A stretch of 43,242 nt of DNA, from NCBI GenBank assembly GCA_964534475.1, contig CAZHRH010000003.1, positions 1-43,242 on the forward strand, read 5' to 3'. A program made the translations under genes and the position numbers. A model generated the notes under the pieces. It had not been told where the DNA came from, searched no databases, and saw nothing but the letters and a program-made list of their open reading frames with translations. Positions 24,297 through 32,394 of the stretch are shown one piece after another (position 1 is the first letter of the stretch; every line of letters begins with the position of its first letter). Source of the DNA: an uncultured Wenzhouxiangellaceae bacterium (GTDB lineage: Bacteria; Pseudomonadota; Gammaproteobacteria; Xanthomonadales; Wenzhouxiangellaceae).

Positions 24297-24443
24297 AGCA
24301 CAGTCCTGACGATTGAGACAGTAATGATGAGCATGCCTTGGTGATGCTGCATTGTAAAGCATCATCCGCATGGCAGATTGCTACCATCTGCACTCAGATA
24401 ATGTGCATTCTAACGGCAGACAGTCCGCATGTAACACCCGCAT

Positions 24444-24733
24444 TCAAGCCGCGCGCATGCGCTGGCGATCCAGCGCCTGCTGCAGATCGGCAATGATGTC
24501 CGCCGGGGTTTCCAGTCCCACAGAAAACCGCACCAGACCATCGCTGATGCCGTGTGCGGCGCGTTCTGCGACCGAATAGGTTGAGAGTGTGTCATGCTGG
24601 CCGGATGCTGTATCAGGCTTTCAGCGTCACCCAGCGAGACCGCGCGCTGCACCAGTTGCAGTGCGTTCATGAATTGCATGCCTGCGGCCATGCCGCCGTG
24701 CAGCTCGAGCGCGCTTGCGTATGGCATGGTCAT
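24444..24733 (-). pseudogene. C-terminal remnant of a Cys/Met-metabolism PLP enzyme (homoserine sulfhydrylase / cystathionine gamma-synthase family), 5'-truncated and frameshifted
   Basis: One frame reads [44 protein letters not shown] second frame continues [46 protein letters not shown]. Together these form the conserved C-terminal quarter of the family. The roughly 290 N-terminal residues are absent, and repeats begin just upstream. Confidence 0.75.
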
Positions 24734-24779
24734 GCATGCGCGGTCGTTTCCGGCGTGAGCTCGGGATCGACTTTTATTG

Positions 24780-24915
24780 ATCCACAGATTACGCAGATTA
24801 CACAGAAATGATGCAGAGATTAGCCGGTTGCTCCCGGTCTTACCCTGTCTGTCAGGCTTGCCTGGTGGCTTGCTGCGAGATGAACCAATCTGTGTAATCG
24901 GTGCAATCTGTGGAT
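24780..24915. mobile_element. MITE-like element, copy 1 (136 bp, 26-bp terminal inverted repeats)
   Basis: The left end is ATCCACAGATTACGCAGATTACACAG. The right end is CTGTGTAATCGGTGCAATCTGTGGAT. The ends match at 23/26 positions when reverse-complemented. The element has no coding capacity, and a near-identical second copy lies 387 bp away. Confidence 0.6.
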
Positions 24916-25031
24916 TTACTCCTGCTAGATGCGGATTTTATGCAACCACAGGATTCACATGGCATAGCCTTGAGTGATAGCAGGTTTGCCTATCGCATGG
25001 TCGTGCATGCTCGGTCGTTCCCCCACCCCAG

Positions 25032-25055: not shown

Positions 25056-25166
25056 AGTTTCCCAGCCGCTGTTGTATTGATCAATATCCTGCTCGCTCCT
25101 TACGACCTTCGATTTCATCGAAGTGGCAGAATCAGTGCAATCTGTGGTTTATCTATTGTTTTATTG

Positions 25167-25306
25167 ATCCACAGATTACGCAGATTACACAGCAATAATG
25201 CCGAGATTTGCCGCTTGCTCCCGGTCTTACCCGGCCTACCTGTCAGGCTTGCCTGGTGGCTTGCTGCAAGATGAACCAATCTGTGTCATCGGTGCAATCT
25301 GTGGAT
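25167..25306. mobile_element. MITE-like element, copy 2 (140 bp)
   Basis: The left TIR is the same as in copy 1. The right TIR is CTGTGTCATCGGTGCAATCTGTGGAT, matching at 22/26 positions. The interior aligns with copy 1 at most positions, with one 4-nt indel. A solo right-end fragment (aatcagtgcaatctgtgg) lies at 25130-25148. Confidence 0.6.
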
Positions 25307-25324
25307 TTTTATCTTTATACGTTA

Positions 25325-27034
25325 TCAGGGAATAATCCAGTCGGTTACAGCAGCAATATAGTCGGGTTGCTGATCAGCCGGTTTGACGATGTAGCCACCT
25401 TTTGACAGGTAGCGCTGATCCGGCCCAAGCGACAAGCGCGGGTACAAGCCGGGATTCTTGCTGCCCTCGACTTCGTGTTCGATCAGTTCAAGAAAGTAAT
25501 CACGATGAAAGTTGTTGAAGATGTGACGCATGGCGTCGAACACGATCATCATGCCGTAATGCGCCTTGAAGTGCAGGCGCTGATCAATGACTTCCAGCCC
25601 GCGCGAATTCATCCAGCCCTGTATGCGGTAGGTTTCCGGATAATAGCCGCTGGCCAGCGCGCGCGGATAGGTGAAGTAGACCTGGTCGGCCAGATCAGTG
25701 GCGAGCAGCGTTTGCGCGGCGCCGGCGGCGGCTTGTGGCAGCAGCAGTCGGACCTCACCAAGATCCTGCTGAGACAGTACCTGCAGCAGCGCATCTGCGT
25801 TGGAATCCGGCCAGATGACAAGCGTGTCAGCCGCCCGTATCCGTTCCAGATTAGCATTGACGAAGGCGGTCAGATCAACTCCAGCAGGATACTGCTGCAG
25901 TTTCTGCAGTTTGATCTGATCATGCTCACGCAGCAGTTCACGGAAGTAATCCGCCGGAATCCTGCCGCGATCACTGGCGGCATGCCAGACCAGGACATCA
26001 TGTCGCTTGTCCGGTGGCGGTGTGCTGAGGTAATCCAGCATCAGTTCCGCTTCCAGATACAGGCCACGGTCGTAATACACCGTGTATTGGCCTTCGGCAT
26101 CGACAATGGCCGGAAAGTCGGTGATCGGCAATATACATGGTATGCCTTCATCGTTGCAGAATTGAGCGATCGGTGACCAGCTTCCCACCACCATGCCGTT
26201 AATCAGTGCGAAGGCCGGTTGCTTGTCCTGTTTCGCTTCCAGTTGCGCGCGCCAGGTGGAGGCATCACCTTGCAGCCGCCATGGGTGCAACTTCAGCTTG
26301 CGCAGCCAGTCACGCACATCGGCGCCGTCATACGGAAAAAACTGATTCATGCGCTGATCGCCGCCGATGCGCTCATTCATCCAGGTGACAAAGGCGTCCA
26401 TGGTGGCCAGCACCGCATCGACTCGCTGCGCGTCAACTTCCGGTCCGATCACCACTGCGTAATGAATGTGCGTATCGTCCACTCCCGGGGATTTATCAGC
26501 AGACAGGGTCTGCAAATAGGCATACAGATTGGCCATGTCACGCTCATCGAGCTGATAGCGCGGCATCAGATCCTGAAAACGGTTGTCGCCGGGATCAACC
26601 CCGGTGGCCATTGCCGTGTGCAGTGTTTCCATGGTGTAGGCCGGGCGTATACGCGGTGAACGCACATAGGCGCTCTGGCGCGCCGATTGTGGATCAATGA
26701 ACAGCGCGCGGTAGCGATCACTGCGTTGCATGCGGCGTGGCTCGAACAAATAGTTGGCAGTGATGGGTGGAATGTAATAGCCGCCTTCACTGGCACCAAA
26801 GCCGCTGCGTCGATGACATCTGGTGCAGGCAAAATCGCCGCCTGATAGCTCAATATCACCCTGCCCCAGCGCCGTGATCGGCGCGCCAGCGTGTCCGATG
26901 CCCTGTTCATATATGCGTTTGCCGAGTTCAGCATTTCCTGCCGTACTTTCTTCCGCCGGCAGCGGAAAAACAATCAGGCCGCAAAAAAGAACTGCCGTGG
27001 TGAACACGGCAGTCCGAAGCTTTGTATTGGTCAT
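25325..27034 (-). CDS. Secreted fusion protein: N-terminal monohaem cytochrome c domain plus C-terminal type-1 periplasmic binding-protein (LivK-like) domain
   Basis: It has a signal peptide (MTNTKLRTAVFTTAVLFCGLIVFPLPA). A single CTRCH haem motif is followed by a class I-like C-terminal helix (DLMPRY...MANLYAYLQTL). The remaining roughly 390 aa show an alternating beta-alpha pattern resembling PBP1 solute-binding proteins (ALINGMVVGSWSPIAQFCNDEGIPCILP). Confidence 0.7.
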   Translation of the reverse strand: MTNTKLRTAVFTTAVLFCGLIVFPLPAEESTAGNAELGKRIYEQGIGHAGAPITALGQGDIELSGGDFACTRCHRRSGFGASEGGYYIPPITANYLFEPRRMQRSDRYRALFIDPQSARQSAYVRSPRIRPAYTMETLHTAMATGVDPGDNRFQDLMPRYQLDERDMANLYAYLQTLSADKSPGVDDTHIHYAVVIGPEVDAQRVDAVLATMDAFVTWMNERIGGDQRMNQFFPYDGADVRDWLRKLKLHPWRLQGDASTWRAQLEAKQDKQPAFALINGMVVGSWSPIAQFCNDEGIPCILPITDFPAIVDAEGQYTVYYDRGLYLEAELMLDYLSTPPPDKRHDVLVWHAASDRGRIPADYFRELLREHDQIKLQKLQQYPAGVDLTAFVNANLERIRAADTLVIWPDSNADALLQVLSQQDLGEVRLLLPQAAAGAAQTLLATDLADQVYFTYPRALASGYYPETYRIQGWMNSRGLEVIDQRLHFKAHYGMMIVFDAMRHIFNNFHRDYFLELIEHEVEGSKNPGLYPRLSLGPDQRYLSKGGYIVKPADQQPDYIAAVTDWIIP

Positions 27035-27045
27035 GATTTAATCGC

Positions 27046-27699
27046 TCAGCGGCTGGCCATGGCTGCTTGCTGCGCCAGGCGCTTGGCACGCTGGTACTCG
27101 CTGGCAATGGCTTTGCCGGTCATCATGCCGTCAAAGCGCAGCCATTCATTACTGTCATCCACGCGCATCAACGTGATCGGCTGATGATTCATTTTGTTGC
27201 CGCCTTCATAGACCGAGTCCACAGCCTGCAGCAATGCATGGATGGCATCGACTTCACCAGTGAGAAAATGCACTTTGGAGCCGGTTTCAAAACGCTCGGC
27301 ATAACTGCTCAGACGTTCCGGCGTGTCGTACTCCGGATCCAGCGACACCAGATAAATGGCGTAATCCGGATCAATCGGATCAAGACCTTTGGTGGCGCTG
27401 GCCATGGTCGCCGATATCATCGGACAGACACCGGCACAGGAGGTAAATACAAAGCTGACGATGGCAGATTCCTGCACTGCAAATAGCTCGGCGACATTGA
27501 CCTGATCGCCATGGGCGGTGGTCAACATGACCTGCGGAACTTCATAGGCATGTGAACTGCGCACGTAGGACTGGTGTTTTTTTGCCTTGGCAGGCTGAGC
27601 GTTATCGGCAGTCTCCACGGCAAAACCCTCATTGGCGGTAAGCAACAACACCACCAGCACCCATGCCAGTATTTTGATTGTAGAAGTAAGTATGTTCAT
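27046..27699 (-). CDS. SCO1/SenC-family copper chaperone (thioredoxin fold, CxxxC)
   Basis: FVFTSCAGVCP carries the CxxxC motif. SLDPEYDTPERLSSYAERF and a downstream His (NHQPITL) are present. It has an N-terminal signal/anchor (MNILTSTIKILAWVLVVLLLTA). The ATG at 27699 has an AGGAAG RBS, whereas the track start (TTG at 27756) has none. Confidence 0.85.
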   Translation of the reverse strand: MNILTSTIKILAWVLVVLLLTANEGFAVETADNAQPAKAKKHQSYVRSSHAYEVPQVMLTTAHGDQVNVAELFAVQESAIVSFVFTSCAGVCPMISATMASATKGLDPIDPDYAIYLVSLDPEYDTPERLSSYAERFETGSKVHFLTGEVDAIHALLQAVDSVYEGGNKMNHQPITLMRVDDSNEWLRFDGMMTGKAIASEYQRAKRLAQQAAMASR

Positions 27700-27756
27700 A
27701 GCTTCCTGTATGTTTTTGCTGTTTTTATGGTTATGTTTATGGTGTTCAGTGGACAA

Positions 27757-27784
27757 TGAAACTGCCGCGCCAGTGGCGCGGCAG
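27757..27784 (-). terminator. Strong GC hairpin (11-bp arms) followed by a TTTCATTG tract, between the orphan gene and SCO1
   Basis: CTGCCGCGCCA-G-TGGCGCGGCAG at 27762-27784 lies 13 nt after the orphan gene stop codon. On the minus strand it is followed by TTTCATTG. It could act as a partial terminator/attenuator or as an mRNA-stabilising stem. Confidence 0.45.
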
Positions 27785-27797
27785 CAGGGAAATCAGA

Positions 27798-29759
27798 TCA
27801 GTGGACTGACCAGATATTCATATCATGGTGCAGCGGATCGAACTGATACATGGTGATACGCTGCGACGGCTCGTAATTGAAGTTCAAAATGACGTTATGC
27901 ACACCAAGACCTCCCTCATCACCGTCTGCTGTCAATTTACCGGGTGCCACACCCAGCGCCTGAGCGCTGGCAGCACGAAGCAGTGAAGCATCCGGCGTCT
28001 TGCGCGTTGTGGTATTGCGCACATCCAGCCAGCTCGGCGTCAGGTGATAGTTCTGCGCCTCGCCTTTGCTGTTCAGCACCGGAAGATTCTCGGAACGACC
28101 CGGTCCACCGAGGATGGCCAGTGTCTCTTCAATGGTCATACCCGGTGAGCCATCCGGCAGCGGCGCTGGCGGCACCATGGGCGGCATGGGAATCTGTGGC
28201 CACCAGTGTACGCGGCCGAAGGTGAACCAGGGGCCGGCGCCGCCTATGGGGATGGTGTTCTGGAAGGTGTTTTCCCAGCCGCGCATGCCGCCGAAGTCGA
28301 CCATCTGGTAAGCATGTACGAAATGGTCAGCATTCAGCAGCTTAACCTTGATCTGGTCACCGCGCTTGCGGAATGGAACCAGCTTTTCATTGTCCCGCAC
28401 CGAGCCTTTGACATTGCCATACAGGGTATTGTTGGCAAACAACAGGGTCATGTCGTCATCCGGATCAGCCTGAATGCCGGACGGGAGTCTGATCTTGTTC
28501 TGCCAGTCATCAAAGGCTGCCTCGAATGCGGCAACGTCAGCCGCACCCACGGCACCACCGGCGTCACGCATTTCGCGCAGGATATTCCACATGCGTTTGG
28601 CCGGAGCAATGTCACCAATCATGGCGATGGCTGCCAGTTTGTTTTCTTCGCTGGCAGTGGGTTCCGGACCGAACACAATGCTTTCCCATTCAGGACGCGG
28701 CATGCCGCCAGCCGGGATCAGGGCATTTTCGATCACCTGCACACGCGGAGGATGGATGCGCCAACCCCAGAAGTAGGTCAGGTTCCACATGCGTCCAGGC
28801 TGCATCTGCATTTCGAACGTGGTACGGGTACCGTCTTCCATCGGGAAGAAGGTTGTATCCATGGCCACATGCGGTGCCGGAGCGCCGAGTACTGCCGGAT
28901 CATCAAAAACCATATTAAATGGTGCGAAATCTTCATGCCCACGGTTTAGCGTGTCGGCATGCACCACCATGGTCCAGGGCACGTCGAGCACCGGTGTCGG
29001 GTCGATGTAGGAAGTGTCGGACATGATGCGCTGATCAAACCAGACCTGATGCACTTCGATGCGACCACCGATCACATTGCCATCGGCATCGAGCTCCAGT
29101 TCGAAGTCTCCCGGTCCACGCACCTTGTCTGGTCCGTTGTAGTGCAGCATCGGCATACCGGAATAGGCACGATCAATGTCATTGCCTTCCATGATGTCGA
29201 TAGCAAACTGAATATCCGCAGCACTCACAGACTGACCGCTTTCAATGGCTGTCTGCATGTTCTTCAGAATGCCGCGCAGATCGTCGGTCGGCGACAGTGG
29301 ATTGATTTCCGATACCACCGGATCCGGATGCAGGTTGTATGGATCTTCCGGTGTCGATGGCAATGTATTCGGAATTTCCGCACCACCGGTAGCTGTGGCA
29401 TTTTCATACACAGTTGGACACAGATTGGTCGGAATATCATCGTCCGCGCTGGATGGCGCGAAGAACGACTCCGGAGTGGTGATGGTTGATGTCATGCCGT
29501 CGTCACTGGTAACGATGGTGCTTGGTGCTGCCGGACGCGGCCGCACACCAGGGTGTCCCGGGCAGGCGTCAGCCGAAACCTCTGGTGGGAAAGTGCCTGT
29601 GCCTGGTGGCGGTACCACAGGTAAGCCGCAACCCGGGATAGTGATACCCAACAATATTTGCAGCAGCTCACATCCGGCACCACCTTGATTGGCGGGTTGC
29701 GCTTGCGCTTGCTGCCAGGCAAATCCGCAGACTAGCATTGCTGTGATGATTTTTTTCAT
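27798..29759 (-). CDS. Orphan secreted protein (about 650 aa), no family recognised
   Basis: The long ORF has coding-like composition. A Sec signal MKKIITAMLVCGFAWQQAQA precedes QP. The ATG at 29759 has a GAGAG upstream. Alternative coupled starts (GTG at 29816, ATG at 29813) overlap the upstream stop. I recognise no motif from any characterised family. Confidence 0.7.
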   Translation of the reverse strand: MKKIITAMLVCGFAWQQAQAQPANQGGAGCELLQILLGITIPGCGLPVVPPPGTGTFPPEVSADACPGHPGVRPRPAAPSTIVTSDDGMTSTITTPESFFAPSSADDDIPTNLCPTVYENATATGGAEIPNTLPSTPEDPYNLHPDPVVSEINPLSPTDDLRGILKNMQTAIESGQSVSAADIQFAIDIMEGNDIDRAYSGMPMLHYNGPDKVRGPGDFELELDADGNVIGGRIEVHQVWFDQRIMSDTSYIDPTPVLDVPWTMVVHADTLNRGHEDFAPFNMVFDDPAVLGAPAPHVAMDTTFFPMEDGTRTTFEMQMQPGRMWNLTYFWGWRIHPPRVQVIENALIPAGGMPRPEWESIVFGPEPTASEENKLAAIAMIGDIAPAKRMWNILREMRDAGGAVGAADVAAFEAAFDDWQNKIRLPSGIQADPDDDMTLLFANNTLYGNVKGSVRDNEKLVPFRKRGDQIKVKLLNADHFVHAYQMVDFGGMRGWENTFQNTIPIGGAGPWFTFGRVHWWPQIPMPPMVPPAPLPDGSPGMTIEETLAILGGPGRSENLPVLNSKGEAQNYHLTPSWLDVRNTTTRKTPDASLLRAASAQALGVAPGKLTADGDEGGLGVHNVILNFNYEPSQRITMYQFDPLHHDMNIWSVH

Positions 29760-29812
29760 GACTTTGGCTCTCGTTTGTTTTAGTTTTAAGTTGTCAGGGC
29801 TGTAATTCTTCA

Positions 29813-30592
29813 TCACACCCTCCCCGGCTCAGCGTTGTCATAAATTGCGCCCTGCGTGTTCAGCCGCCGTGGGCCGGCCTGGCGCATCTGTGCCTGTGTT
29901 GGCACAGCTCTGGGTATGACCGATGCAATCCGCCGGCGCGACAATTCCAGATCCTGATACATGGAACCGACTGTGGCCCATAAACCAGACGCTGCATTGC
30001 CGTAGTGGATCAGATCAGCATCCAACTTGCGATGCGGTCTGCCCTCGGCACGATACAGTTTCAACCCAAGAGCAACCACGGAATCGGCATCGGCAGTGAG
30101 GAAACGCCAGCCTTCCGGAGCATCAAACTGCTTCGCGAACTCGGCCAGTCGCTCCGGCGTATCGTTGTTGGAGTCATAGCTGATGGAAAAGACATGCAGG
30201 TCCTTGCCGATCTTGTCGGCAAAGGAATGTACCAGTCTTGCTACCTGTGCTGTTACCGGATAATCGGCTTCTGCCTCGATTGACATGAAGTTGATCATCA
30301 CCACCCGATCCTGAATCAGATCAGCAAAAAATCGATGCTGCTGATTCTCGTGATCGGTGACGGTGACGTCAGGGAACCTGGCGGCGGCAACCCGACGCAG
30401 AGTGTCCTCGCTGCACTGCTGGATGTCCATCTCACCGGCGCGACCGAAGGCCAACGCCGGTAAAGTGGCTGCTGCCACCGCTGCTGGTAGTGATGCCAGC
30501 AACTTGCGGCGTGCTGAAGTCGCCCTGCTGGCTTTGGCGTCAGGTGCTGCCGGCTCGGTATCGACTTTAATTGTTGCATTGCTCTGAGTCAT
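29813..30592 (-). CDS. Tat-signal SCO-fold protein lacking the CxxxC copper-binding motif
   Basis: It has a twin-arginine motif (SARRKLLASLPAAVAAATLPALAFG). SCO-like blocks are present (ISYDSNNDTPERLAEFAKQF, WRFLTADADSV). The position of F-x-x-C-x-x-x-C-P reads FMSIEAEADYP. The ATG at 30592 lies 2 nt after the MCO stop. Confidence 0.7.
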   Translation of the reverse strand: MTQSNATIKVDTEPAAPDAKASRATSARRKLLASLPAAVAAATLPALAFGRAGEMDIQQCSEDTLRRVAAARFPDVTVTDHENQQHRFFADLIQDRVVMINFMSIEAEADYPVTAQVARLVHSFADKIGKDLHVFSISYDSNNDTPERLAEFAKQFDAPEGWRFLTADADSVVALGLKLYRAEGRPHRKLDADLIHYGNAASGLWATVGSMYQDLELSRRRIASVIPRAVPTQAQMRQAGPRRLNTQGAIYDNAEPGRV

Positions 30593-30594
30593 GA

Positions 30595-32394
30595 TCAGTC
30601 CCCCTGTCCCGGCGGAACCATCTTCCACTGAATCATCATTTCATGATCTTCGTGCACCACATTGTGACAATGCATCACATGAGTGCCGAAGAAATCACGC
30701 CAGCGACCGAAGAACTTGTATTCCTGATTTGGACCGAGCTCAATGATGTCTTTGCGCGCACGCAGGAAGCTGTCTTCAGCGATTGGTTTGCCGTTGAACT
30801 CGATGTACTGGAATTCCTCAAAGTGGGTATGCACCGGGTGACTCCAGGTGTTGCCGGAGTTACGTATGGTCCAGACTTCTGCAGAACCCTGCTCGATCAA
30901 TGCATCGATGCGGTTGGGGTCCATGACTTTACCGTTCACAGTCCACTGGCCGTTGTCATAGTCGAACACCCAGAGACGTTCGCGGCGCACTTCATCCATA
31001 TTGATGCTGGGGAATTCTCGCAAGCGATCCGGAATCTGGCTGGGGTCACCAACATCGGGATTCTGCGGTATGACGTCGTAGCGCATGACCAGATCGCCTT
31101 CATCCTTGATTTTGCCGGACTCACCAGCACCATCGGGGCGCATTTCCAGACGATTGACCAGATACACCTTGTCACCAGGCTCAAAGGCGGAGAAATCCAC
31201 CACCACATCAACCCGGTTGGCCACCCACAGCGGGAAGCTTTCCATTTCCAGCGGTTCCTGCAGCATGTTGCCATCGTTGGTCATGACATAAAATTTCAAA
31301 CCTGGGTGGTTATCGCTGACCGTGCCATCGGCACGCTCCAGACGCAGGCTGAGCTGATACAGCCGCGATGGTCCGCCATTGAGCAGTCGGAAGCGATATT
31401 TGCGCGCTTCCACATCCAGCCGTGGCGAAATGGTTCGGTTGACAGTAATGCGGTCACCGAGCATGCCGAACAGGGTGAAATTGGAACTGCCGATGTAAGT
31501 CGTTTCGGAGTCTTCAGGCTCGACTCTCGGACCCAGTCCACCATCGAAAAAGTCGAACACCACCTGACCGTTCTGATCAAACTGCACGTCATGCAGGATC
31601 ATCGGAATATCGTAGTCACCACTGGGCAGACGGAACGCATCCGGATTGGGATCGTTTTCGTCGTCGGAATCAAGATCGTCGAACAGCAGGTAAAAACCGG
31701 ACAGGCCGGCGTAGACGTTCGGCGCGGTGAAATCCAGGCGGTGATCGTGATACCAAAGGGTATTCATGATCTCGGTGTTGTCGAAACCGGCCGGAAAGTT
31801 GCCGTAATGGTGATCCCAGAACTCACCCGAGTTGAAGAAGTCGGTCGGGATACCATCGCTCTCAGAGGCGGTGTGGCCATTGTGCAGGTGCACAGTGATG
31901 GATGGCAACGCAAACTGAACCTTGACATCTGGATCCCCCACCGGCGGCAGGTTGTTCAATCTGCGCACCAGCACCGGCTCGCCATAGCGCACTTTGTAAG
32001 TCGGACCGGGCGCATGGAACAATCCTGCAGCATCATTCTGCCAGCCCCAGTGCCAGGAACCCTGCGCATAGGGGCCTTCGCTGTGATAAACCCAGCGATT
32101 CTGCACGATGTTTTCCTTGTAGAAATCAACCGGCGGAAAATCATAAAAGCGTTGATGACGGCGTCCGTCGGGTAACGGGCTGAAGCTGTTGAGAGGTTCC
32201 GGCGTTGCTACTGGCATGCGGAAAAGTGGATCTTTGAAAGGTACGATGGGTGGACTGGGTGCAGCTTCTATTGAAGGTTTGAAGCCTTGTGGAAAAACCA
32301 GACCGCTTTGGCGAAACTCAACTTTGCCATGTGCGGTCGCAGCCATGCCACCCGCAGCCAATCCCAGCTTGAGGACATCTCTTCGGTTAGTCAT
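30595..32394 (-). CDS. Tat-exported three-domain multicopper oxidase (CotA / bilirubin-oxidase-like)
   Basis: It has a Tat signal (MTNRRDVLKLGLAAGGMAATAHG). All four copper-ligand motifs are present: HLHNGH, WYHDH, HPVHTH, and HCHNVVHEDHEM (HCH-x3-H-x4-M, axial Met). Confidence 0.92.
   Translation of the reverse strand: MTNRRDVLKLGLAAGGMAATAHGKVEFRQSGLVFPQGFKPSIEAAPSPPIVPFKDPLFRMPVATPEPLNSFSPLPDGRRHQRFYDFPPVDFYKENIVQNRWVYHSEGPYAQGSWHWGWQNDAAGLFHAPGPTYKVRYGEPVLVRRLNNLPPVGDPDVKVQFALPSITVHLHNGHTASESDGIPTDFFNSGEFWDHHYGNFPAGFDNTEIMNTLWYHDHRLDFTAPNVYAGLSGFYLLFDDLDSDDENDPNPDAFRLPSGDYDIPMILHDVQFDQNGQVVFDFFDGGLGPRVEPEDSETTYIGSSNFTLFGMLGDRITVNRTISPRLDVEARKYRFRLLNGGPSRLYQLSLRLERADGTVSDNHPGLKFYVMTNDGNMLQEPLEMESFPLWVANRVDVVVDFSAFEPGDKVYLVNRLEMRPDGAGESGKIKDEGDLVMRYDVIPQNPDVGDPSQIPDRLREFPSINMDEVRRERLWVFDYDNGQWTVNGKVMDPNRIDALIEQGSAEVWTIRNSGNTWSHPVHTHFEEFQYIEFNGKPIAEDSFLRARKDIIELGPNQEYKFFGRWRDFFGTHVMHCHNVVHEDHEMMIQWKMVPPGQGD

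Follow-up and report, generated by a model that had tools for sequence, protein, structure and literature searches.

The ioxC gene and the published iox cluster

The window analyzed here is the whole of a 43,242-nucleotide stretch of contig CAZHRH010000003.1 (assembly GCA_964534475.1) from an uncultured Wenzhouxiangellaceae bacterium, and the gene in question is an open reading frame (ORF) on its minus strand at 27798-29816. The original prediction, made from the sequence without database searches, took this ORF to encode an orphan secreted protein of 650-670 amino acids (aa), situated between two SCO-fold genes and downstream of a multicopper oxidase (MCO) gene; domain searches confirmed that setting. 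We identify the ORF as ioxC, which stands third in a complete ioxABCDE cassette, because its homology to IoxC of Iodidimonas muriae, the order of its cassette and the mass of its predicted precursor all agree. Judged by sequence homology, synteny and size, its product is a member of the IoxC family.

The iox cluster described from Iodidimonas comprises an MCO gene (ioxA, 62 kDa product), three genes for SCO1/SenC homologues (ioxB, ioxD and ioxF), and ioxC (71 kDa) and ioxE, whose functions were described as unclear; gsp genes flank the cluster (PMC9415286). The purified extracellular iodide oxidase (IOX) contains Cu and Zn, shows bands at 320 and 590 nm and uses O2 as its acceptor (PMC9415286), and IoxA as well as IoxC was found in IOX purified from Iodidimonas sp. 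Q-1 and Roseovarius sp. A-2 (PMC9415286; PMC12335899). Our species scan recovered I. muriae (locus L049) together with many Roseovarius genomes. In the I. muriae locus, genes for GspH/F/E are followed by an MCO, an SCO protein, a 644-aa protein that lacks any Pfam domain, a second SCO protein, a cytochrome-c-domain protein and a third SCO protein; because gene order and gsp flank agree, we equate this locus with the published layout and let the I. muriae orthologue stand in for strain Q-1 IoxC in sequence comparisons. The window IoxC shares 44% identity over 610 columns (E 2e-149) with IoxC of I. muriae JCM 17843 (L049, 7941-9875), which itself matches the IoxC family profile at 7e-146. All four neighbors of ioxC match their I. 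muriae counterparts in order and strand, with identities of 58% for IoxA (full length), 38% for IoxB, 35% for IoxD and 35% for IoxE (full length). The predicted precursor of 71.0 kDa, bearing a Sec signal, agrees with the 71 kDa published for IoxC.

Compared with IoxC of the IOX enzymes from strains Q-1 and A-2 (Suzuki et al. 2012; Shiroyama et al. 2015), the window protein shares the mass of ~71 kDa, its place in the cassette, flanked by two SCO-like genes with an IoxA-clade MCO encoded upstream and a cytochrome-c-domain IoxE downstream, and the invariant C-terminal ...FDPxHHxxxIWSxH. It differs in its host, an uncultured gammaproteobacterium, in an additional Cys/Pro-rich N-terminal extension, in the lack of ioxF from the window and of adjoining gsp genes, and in being known from genes alone. 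The absence of ioxF was clear from the window: I. muriae IoxF matches ioxD only, and the 950 nt past ioxE hold repeats and no SCO gene. That gene belongs to the description of the Iodidimonas cluster and is not defining for IoxC.

The start of ioxC requires some attention. The ORF listing for the window gives 672 codons from a GTG start to a stop codon at 27798-27800 (minus strand), and the listed GTG overlaps the ioxB stop. The sequence at the ioxB/ioxC junction is GGGGAGGGTGTGATG; here the stop codon of ioxB and an ATG at 29813 overlap as TGATG, GGAGG stands 5-7 nt upstream of that ATG, and a further candidate ATG lies at 29759 (MKKII..., MKKIITAML...). The true start is likely one of these two ATG codons rather than the listed GTG. 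Both would yield the same mature protein after Sec-type cleavage. By direct reading of the sequence, the Sec signal peptide, MKKIITAMLVCGFAWQQAQA (29697-29759, minus strand), is cleaved after AQA and before QP, which bears out the secretion signal proposed originally. Predicted masses are 71.0 kDa for the 653-aa precursor and 68.7 kDa for the mature protein. A lipoprotein signal was considered and rejected, as there is no lipobox.

The Cys residues of the protein (672-aa numbering) lie at 30, within the signal, and at 49, 63, 85 and 133, so that all four mature Cys fall within the first 93 mature residues, as the original prediction had stated. Its Pro/Thr-rich N-terminal region was likewise borne out, at 16.5% Pro, 13% Thr and 11% Gly over the first 115 mature residues. 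A Cys/Pro/Thr-rich extension (29442-29696, minus strand) holds three of the mature Cys, and the fourth, Cys133, lies in the adjoining conserved arm, where it too is clade-specific. The extension has low model confidence. It is confined to the clades of the window and of Wenzhouxiangellaceae, and in part to the Nitrosomonas clade, and is missing or different in alignments of the methanotroph, Nitrospirota and other clades. The mature protein contains 2.5% His and 4.0% Met, making its His/Met richness weak.

Cassette genes and their order across genomes

The cassette is read on the minus strand from ioxA to ioxE. The first gene, ioxA (30595-32394), encodes a predicted Tat-exported three-domain MCO of 599 aa (Pfam Cu-oxidase_2 and a TAT, or twin-arginine, signal) with PhsA/CueO-like NCBIfam matches; its nearest PDB relatives are bilirubin oxidase and CotA (E 1e-50 to 1e-40). 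The motif HCHxxxHxxxxM is present in 68/68 IoxA homologues, in which a Tat signal is usual, and the window IoxA keeps four copper motifs. A 510-aa ORF antisense to ioxA (30643-32175, plus strand) is most likely fortuitous, a shadow ORF such as GC-rich DNA often contains. The next gene, ioxB (29813-30628), encodes an SCO-fold protein that lacks CxxxC, with a Tat-like SARRKLL signal and a weak Pfam SCO1-SenC match (E 0.0023). CxxxC was absent from 72/72 sequences at the ioxB position; the full set numbered 77, the other 5 being CxxxC sequences from loci that lack upstream DNA, in which ioxD was the best match. A twin-arginine motif occurred in 58 of the 77. A Tat-exported, Cys-less SCO-like protein such as IoxB would be unusual.

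Downstream of ioxC, ioxD (27046-27756) encodes a canonical SCO1/SenC copper chaperone with CAGVCP (Pfam SCO1-SenC, E 2.7e-17), and CxxxC is retained by 70 of 72 IoxD homologues. The last gene, ioxE (25325-27034), encodes a signal peptide, one c-type haem domain (Pfam Cytochrom_C, E 1.1e-5) and ~450 aa of unknown fold, a part with neither a detectable Pfam family nor a relative in PDB sequence searches. The haem motif of the window IoxE is CTRCH at residue 70, and exactly one CxxCH was found in each of 66/66 IoxE homologues. Ordinary MCO chemistry does not account for a conserved cytochrome c in an MCO cassette. Within the 41-nt spacer between ioxC and ioxD lies a GC-rich stem-loop (27761-27785, minus strand) of 11 bp, 9 of them GC pairs, with no T tract; it could serve as an mRNA stabilizer or partial attenuator, tuning the structural genes (ioxA-C) relative to the accessory genes (ioxD and ioxE).

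We examined gene order at 80 species loci, counting for each statement those with enough flanking DNA. The original prediction had counted a lack of homologues beside MCO or SCO genes elsewhere as refuting it, and the outcome was the opposite: an MCO and an SCO-like gene lie directly upstream of ioxC on the same strand in 66/66 loci. An SCO gene and a gene of ~570 aa corresponding to ioxE follow ioxC in 66/71 loci, and the five-gene cassette was complete in 57 of the 61 loci at which it could be tested. Most exceptions were from Acidobacteriota and Planctomycetota, in addition to two loci with ioxD and ioxE elsewhere. Nitrosomonas and one methanotroph showed the same order of MCO, weak SCO-like protein, ioxC, SCO1/SenC protein and ~570-aa protein. 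A census of flanking ORFs found no recurrent gene beyond ioxA-E, and further conserved partners (transporters, regulators or secretion genes) were rejected on that basis; as no other flanking gene recurs, the cassette is self-contained. Two contigs of BD1-7 clade bacterium SB11_3 (L055 and L056) carry cassettes with identical coordinates and identities, either a duplication or assembly redundancy.

The Nitrosomonas loci bear on an earlier report. Homologues of ioxA and ioxC were noted in some Nitrosomonas, with these homologues called unverified and the presence of the whole operon unknown (PMC12335899), and Nitrosomonas sp. Nm51 oxidizes iodide to iodate, according to Hughes 2021 as cited there (PMC12335899). 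In our scan, strain Nm51 (L017) and further Nitrosomonas genomes (L001-L003 and L020-L025) carry the complete ioxA-E cassette.

In the window, the cassette is surrounded by housekeeping genes (beta-oxidation genes, serS, aceA/aceB, photolyase, katG, cysK, ubiH/ubiI, pepP and ygfB), and no gsp genes lie beside it. The 950-nt gap 3' of ioxE contains two elements of ~150 nt (24772-24917 and 25159-25308) that are 91-95% identical, have 27-nt inverted repeats, ATCCACAGATTACGCAGATTACACAGA, at their ends and look like miniature inverted-repeat transposable elements or repetitive extragenic palindromic sequences. Next to these repeats, a 107-aa ORF (24410-24733, minus strand) looks like the C-terminal remnant of a pyridoxal-phosphate enzyme of Cys/Met metabolism and may be a pseudogene fragment.

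Conservation and predicted fold of IoxC

The gene proved not to be an orphan. A homology search with the window IoxC returned 792 relatives at E values of 1e-3 or below, none of them named and none with a Pfam domain, including proteins from Wenzhouxiangellaceae (~55% identity), Nitrosomonas (~45%) and Nitrospirota, and from Methylobacter, Methylomicrobium and Methyloglobulus (~55% over a shorter protein). Scanning one GTDB genome per species identified 372 places encoding an IoxC relative, and a hidden Markov model search of 1.84 billion cluster representatives returned 290 clusters at 50% identity; the family is compact yet real. By IoxC, the closest genomes are Gammaproteobacteria metagenome-assembled genomes (67-76% identity), followed by those of Wenzhouxiangellaceae. 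The folded core retains 40-55% identity across at least six phyla, and the cassette is distributed over Alpha-, Beta- and Gammaproteobacteria, Nitrospirota, Acidobacteriota, Planctomycetota and Myxococcota. The first hit list prompted the idea of a role peculiar to nitrifiers or methanotrophs (hydroxylamine or NO oxidation), which was dropped because heterotrophs (Roseovarius, Iodidimonas, Wenzhouxiangellaceae and Acidobacteriota) carry the family equally, and because of the published oxidase context.

Annotation resources were of little help. Pfam and NCBIfam contain no family for the window IoxC, and the PDB yielded 0 matches when searched by sequence, whether with the protein itself or with its family profile; these empty searches account for the earlier failure to place the protein, a statement that holds for those resources and does not extend to the clear IoxC homologues. 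A literature search found no structural or mechanistic paper on IoxC.

We counted conserved columns in alignments of 38 and of 77 IoxC homologues, the latter all full-length. Across the 77, 98 columns are at least 95% conserved, many of them Asp, Glu, Arg and Trp. The original prediction had proposed mapping conserved His, Met and Trp residues; doing so revealed many Trp, a single conserved Met (M390) and just five invariant His, at 144, 336, 644, 645 and 653 (653-aa numbering). The terminal residue is His in 77/77 homologues (His653 in the window protein). There is no conserved Cys column among the 77, and 14 of them lack any mature Cys; the Cys/Pro-rich N-terminus, which the original prediction had stressed, is thus a clade-specific addition. 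None of the 77 contains a twin-arginine motif.

Family-wide motifs are YxWGWRxHPPR, AAIxxIGDxAPxKRMW, LLNxD, VDFGGxRGWENTF, WFTFGR and the C-terminal YQFDPLHHDxxIWSxH. The last, at 27801-27842 (minus strand), ends the protein as FDPLHHDxxIWSxH-COOH and holds invariant His644, His645 and the terminal His653. Of the Met/His-dense patches quoted in the original prediction, this C-terminal one (FDPLHHD..IWSxH) is found throughout the family, and the other two are lineage-specific. Near the other end of the protein, an extended arm (29316-29432, minus strand), PxNLxPTVYxN ... IPNTLPSTPExPYNLHPDP, is marked by invariant columns in both alignments and includes invariant His144 (His163 in the 672-aa numbering); in the model it shows little regular secondary structure.

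Several relatives depart from the usual architecture. P0128 (804 aa) has an SCO1/SenC domain ahead of its IoxC region and may be a true SCO-IoxC fusion, or else the result of reading through the overlap between the ioxB stop and the ioxC start; in P0156 and P0157, a CHRD domain at the N-terminus is combined with a C-terminal IoxC region. More distant paralogues of the IoxC core (P0228, P0230, P0238, P0240 and P0249; 22-25% identity) keep WGWRxHPPRIQF and YQFDxLxHDxxIFSxH. The sole informative locus among them, in L087 (3556-6129), adjoins a gene resembling those for formylglycine-generating-enzyme (FGE)-sulfatase proteins and a major facilitator superfamily transporter gene, with no MCO. In seven proteins of 970-1630 aa (P0234, P0223, P0239, P0243, P0247, P0257 and P0262), an IoxC-core-like N-terminus is joined to Vgb-lyase, SGL or NHL beta-propellers and immunoglobulin-like domains.

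An AlphaFold2 model of the window IoxC reached a predicted template modelling score (pTM) of 0.78, with confidence (predicted local distance difference test, pLDDT) above 90 in the core. Residues 11-26, 46-56 and 551-614 (653-aa numbering) fell below 50; disorder is seen in the Cys/Pro region and in a variable insertion of 64 residues. Because the full-length model gave marginal Foldseek matches, a second model was made from a compact methanotroph homologue (pTM 0.85). In both models an arm and a helical hairpin come first, followed by a beta-sandwich of ~130 residues, an insert of four helices and another beta-sandwich. The first predicted sandwich (28710-29177, minus strand) has 11 strands, mostly with pLDDT above 90, and ends in YxWGWRxHPPR, which contains His336. 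The insertion that follows (28500-28697, minus strand), with the motif AAIxxIGDxAPxKRMW ..., is modelled as helices at 355-363, 371-378, 386-399 and 406-420, and columns A377, I378, P386, K388 and W391 are conserved within it. The second sandwich (27801-28451, minus strand), modelled as strands, includes the motifs LLNxDxF..., VDFGGxRGWENTF and WFTFGR; this domain is interrupted by the variable disordered insertion at 27918-28109, which is missing in methanotroph homologues of ~545 aa.

Against the PDB, the full-length model had a best Foldseek E value of 8.6e-4, its leading matches being mainly two-domain MCOs, laccases, rusticyanin, auracyanin, azurin, ceruloplasmin and factors V and VIII. 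The compact model had 94 matches at E values of 1e-3 or below, with probabilities of up to 0.89. Its top 50 matches are all MCO-fold proteins, the best being the copper-less SufI/FtsP (2uxv_B, E 6e-6), and its matches include Fet3p, CueO, ascorbate oxidase, bilirubin oxidase, NirK and two-domain MCOs. Foldseek matches of both models, those of the first sandwich included, are nearly all to MCO or cupredoxin proteins. From these models, the beta domains of IoxC are probably cupredoxin/MCO-like. By every sequence criterion, IoxC lies outside the MCO family: none of the canonical copper motifs (HxH, HxxHxH and HCHxxxHxxxxM) is conserved among the 77 homologues. Nor does it belong with SCO1/SenC, defined by a thioredoxin-like fold and CxxxC...H, since it has no Pfam match; it is the flanking genes that encode the SCO fold. 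Kinship with the copper beta-propellers NosZ and thiocyanate dehydrogenase was also considered and set aside, with no PDB sequence match and none among the fold matches listed.

IoxC as a candidate partner of IoxA

Taken as a whole, the best explanation is that the ioxC product is the partner of IoxA in an IOX-type oxidase, a diverged cupredoxin-like protein that would aid a metal or substrate site; we put the probability of this reading at roughly three in four. A partner subunit of the oxidase was among the roles suggested originally, and it gains support from the homology to IoxC, from the presence of IoxA and IoxC together in purified IOX of two genera and, indirectly, from the MCO and SCO-like genes upstream of ioxC in 66/66 loci. 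The 804-aa P0128, with SCO and IoxC regions in one protein, also speaks for a partnership. The two proteins are exported separately according to their sequence motifs, with a Sec signal on IoxC and a Tat signal on IoxA, and IoxC (~69 kDa when mature) would be the Sec-exported, non-MCO companion of Tat-exported IoxA. It would be a strongly diverged protein of cupredoxin/MCO fold whose canonical copper ligands have been lost, much as in SufI/FtsP, and it would dock on IoxA. There, its five invariant His, with invariant Arg, Trp, Asp and Glu, may supply a His-ligated metal site, holding the Zn or an extra Cu of IOX. Alternatively or additionally, residues of IoxC may form an anion or substrate pocket beside the type-1 copper of IoxA, and its invariant Arg and Trp would suit halide binding. 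Among the accessory proteins, IoxD, the CxxxC SCO protein, would load copper, Cys-less IoxB would assist delivery or assembly, and IoxE, the mono-haem cytochrome c fusion, would act in electron transfer or maturation. IoxC may also be a new cuproprotein, another of the roles suggested originally, given the five invariant His and the Cu and Zn contained in IOX.

Other systems offer partial parallels to this proposed partnership. In the Mnx system of Bacillus sp. PL-12, the MCO MnxG is isolated only in complex with MnxE and MnxF, non-MCO proteins of the same operon that bind extra copper; these are ~12 kDa each and form a hexamer, and the substrate is Mn(II). This is functionally the nearest analogy to the proposed pairing of IoxA and IoxC, and one that the original prediction had named. 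IoxC, however, is one multidomain protein of 69 kDa, and the substrate of IOX is iodide rather than Mn(II). Because of the difference between 69 kDa and ~12 kDa, membership of IoxC in the MnxE/MnxF type is implausible and the likeness is functional only. SufI/FtsP has cupredoxin-type beta-sandwiches devoid of Cys/His copper motifs, as IoxC probably does by its models, but the template modelling score (TM-score) reaches only 0.13-0.16 and the sequences show no similarity. SufI belongs to the divisome, has three domains and is exported by Tat, whereas IoxC carries a Sec signal, two beta domains, a helical insert, a conserved N-terminal arm and five invariant His. Two-domain MCOs (such as 7rab and 3gdc) gave the highest target-normalized TM-scores among the matches, 0.23-0.26, share the layout of two beta-sandwiches predicted for IoxC, and have inter-chain copper sites that are a precedent for metal sites at an interface; IoxC differs in having no canonical copper ligand motif and no homology detectable by profiles. 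The MofA/MofB/MofC and OmpB-type clusters resemble the cassette in combining an extracellular or periplasmic MCO with a cytochrome-c-domain protein and an SCO1/SenC chaperone, but their MCO belongs to another clade and, in the parts of the source that cover these clusters, no IoxC-like gene is described (PMC5566968).

A number of observations weigh against this explanation or limit it. Iodide oxidation is demonstrated for alphaproteobacterial enzymes only, and the window enzyme is a predicted one. Freshwater methanotrophs, Nitrosomonas, Nitrospirota and soil Acidobacteriota carry the cassette as well, and its presence in methanotrophs, nitrifiers and soil bacteria suggests that the natural substrate may be broader than iodide or other than iodide. 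The cupredoxin-like assignment comes entirely from predicted structures. Foldseek TM-scores were only 0.12-0.26, with a root-mean-square deviation of ~20 A, so the likeness is one of individual domains and not of the overall arrangement; Pfam searches of 37 family members at E values of up to 10 returned noise only; and an hhalign comparison of the 77-sequence IoxC profile with a 68-sequence IoxA profile gave a probability of 3.9%, that is, no detectable homology between the two. Finally, the MCO-free context of the L087 paralogue hints that the IoxC core may work on its own, an autonomy made conceivable by that paralogue and by the beta-propeller fusions.

Such autonomy would fit a different explanation, in which IoxC performs catalysis of its own, as a new metalloenzyme with His ligands that carries out a separate step on the substrate or on the HOI or I2 product. 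In one variant, IoxC oxidizes the substrate and passes electrons to the type-1 copper of IoxA or the haem of IoxE, leaving IoxA as an O2-reducing module only. The 98 columns of at least 95% conservation, among them the five invariant His and numerous Asp, Glu, Arg and Trp, exceed what is usual for a passive scaffold. Distant paralogues keep WGWRxHPPR and the C-terminal motif while standing alone beside an FGE-sulfatase-like gene and no MCO, others fuse the core to beta-propellers, and an ordinary MCO has no need of the conserved cytochrome c IoxE. However, the published spectra and activity of IOX are MCO-like (320 and 590 nm, O2 as acceptor), IoxA retains all four copper motifs, Pfam, NCBIfam and PDB sequence searches found no cofactor-binding family or catalytic fold in IoxC, and only one paralogue context was informative. 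We consider a catalytic IoxC unlikely, although it is the most credible of the rival explanations.

Less probable still is a non-catalytic IoxC that serves the assembly, export or stabilization of IoxA, as a periplasmic chaperone or secretion adaptor, and is a contaminant or transient companion of the enzyme. Genes of the maturation type are abundant in the cassette, which has two SCO-fold proteins; type II secretion genes flank the Iodidimonas cluster; IoxA and IoxC leave separately, by Tat and Sec; and SufI/FtsP, the top Foldseek match, is a copper-less MCO-fold protein with a non-enzymatic role. Yet peptides of IoxC were present in the purified extracellular enzyme of two genera, the window and most other loci have no adjoining secretion genes, and 69 kDa, ~100 near-invariant positions and an invariant C-terminal His would be unusual for a chaperone. 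The original prediction had also raised the possibility that the protein is the oxidase's macromolecular substrate, which IoxA might for example cross-link or modify; we regard this, and the notion of a functionless, lineage-specific ORF, as very improbable. A Pro/Thr/Ser-rich disordered N-terminus could be a target of modification, and no annotated family matches, but that N-terminus is the least conserved part of the protein and is missing in many homologues, whereas the core is 40-55% identical across at least six phyla, the family fills 290 representative clusters and synteny is strict. This pattern of conservation largely refutes both ideas.

Returning to IoxC as the partner of IoxA, a more specific version can be entertained tentatively. 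IoxC would be a cupredoxin-derived pseudo-MCO that makes up, with IoxA, a five-domain heteromeric oxidase, and its invariant His residues, including the C-terminal His with its carboxylate end, would build a metal or halide site at the interface. The sole activity demonstrated in the IOX clade is that of the Iodidimonas and Roseovarius enzymes, which use O2 to oxidize iodide and certain phenolic or aromatic dyes. Ordinary laccases are not known to oxidize iodide efficiently, and an interfacial His site on a pseudo-MCO, if it exists, would explain how IOX does.

IoxC has been named since 2012, yet it is without a family model, a structure or an assigned function. The window gene is real and not an orphan: it is a fresh member of this named, uncharacterized family, and genes now annotated as "hypothetical protein" can receive iox names. 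What is newly seen here, from sequences and models, is the complete putative A-E cassette in Nitrosomonas, including Nm51, and the conserved residues and predicted architecture of IoxC, a hallmark of a compact, self-contained five-gene oxidase cassette that extends across many phyla. The Nitrosomonas cassettes, that of Nm51 included, are a testable candidate for the link between nitrification and the formation of marine iodate; if the pseudo-MCO proposal holds, the cassette, which is also widespread in methanotrophs, would be the route of the iodide oxidation, and hence of the iodate formation, reported in cultures of marine ammonia oxidizers. If IoxC is a degenerate cupredoxin partner that makes a substrate or metal site, it would represent a new way to build multicopper oxidases, and it would provide a handle for engineering IOX, which has already been explored as an antimicrobial and dye-bleaching enzyme.

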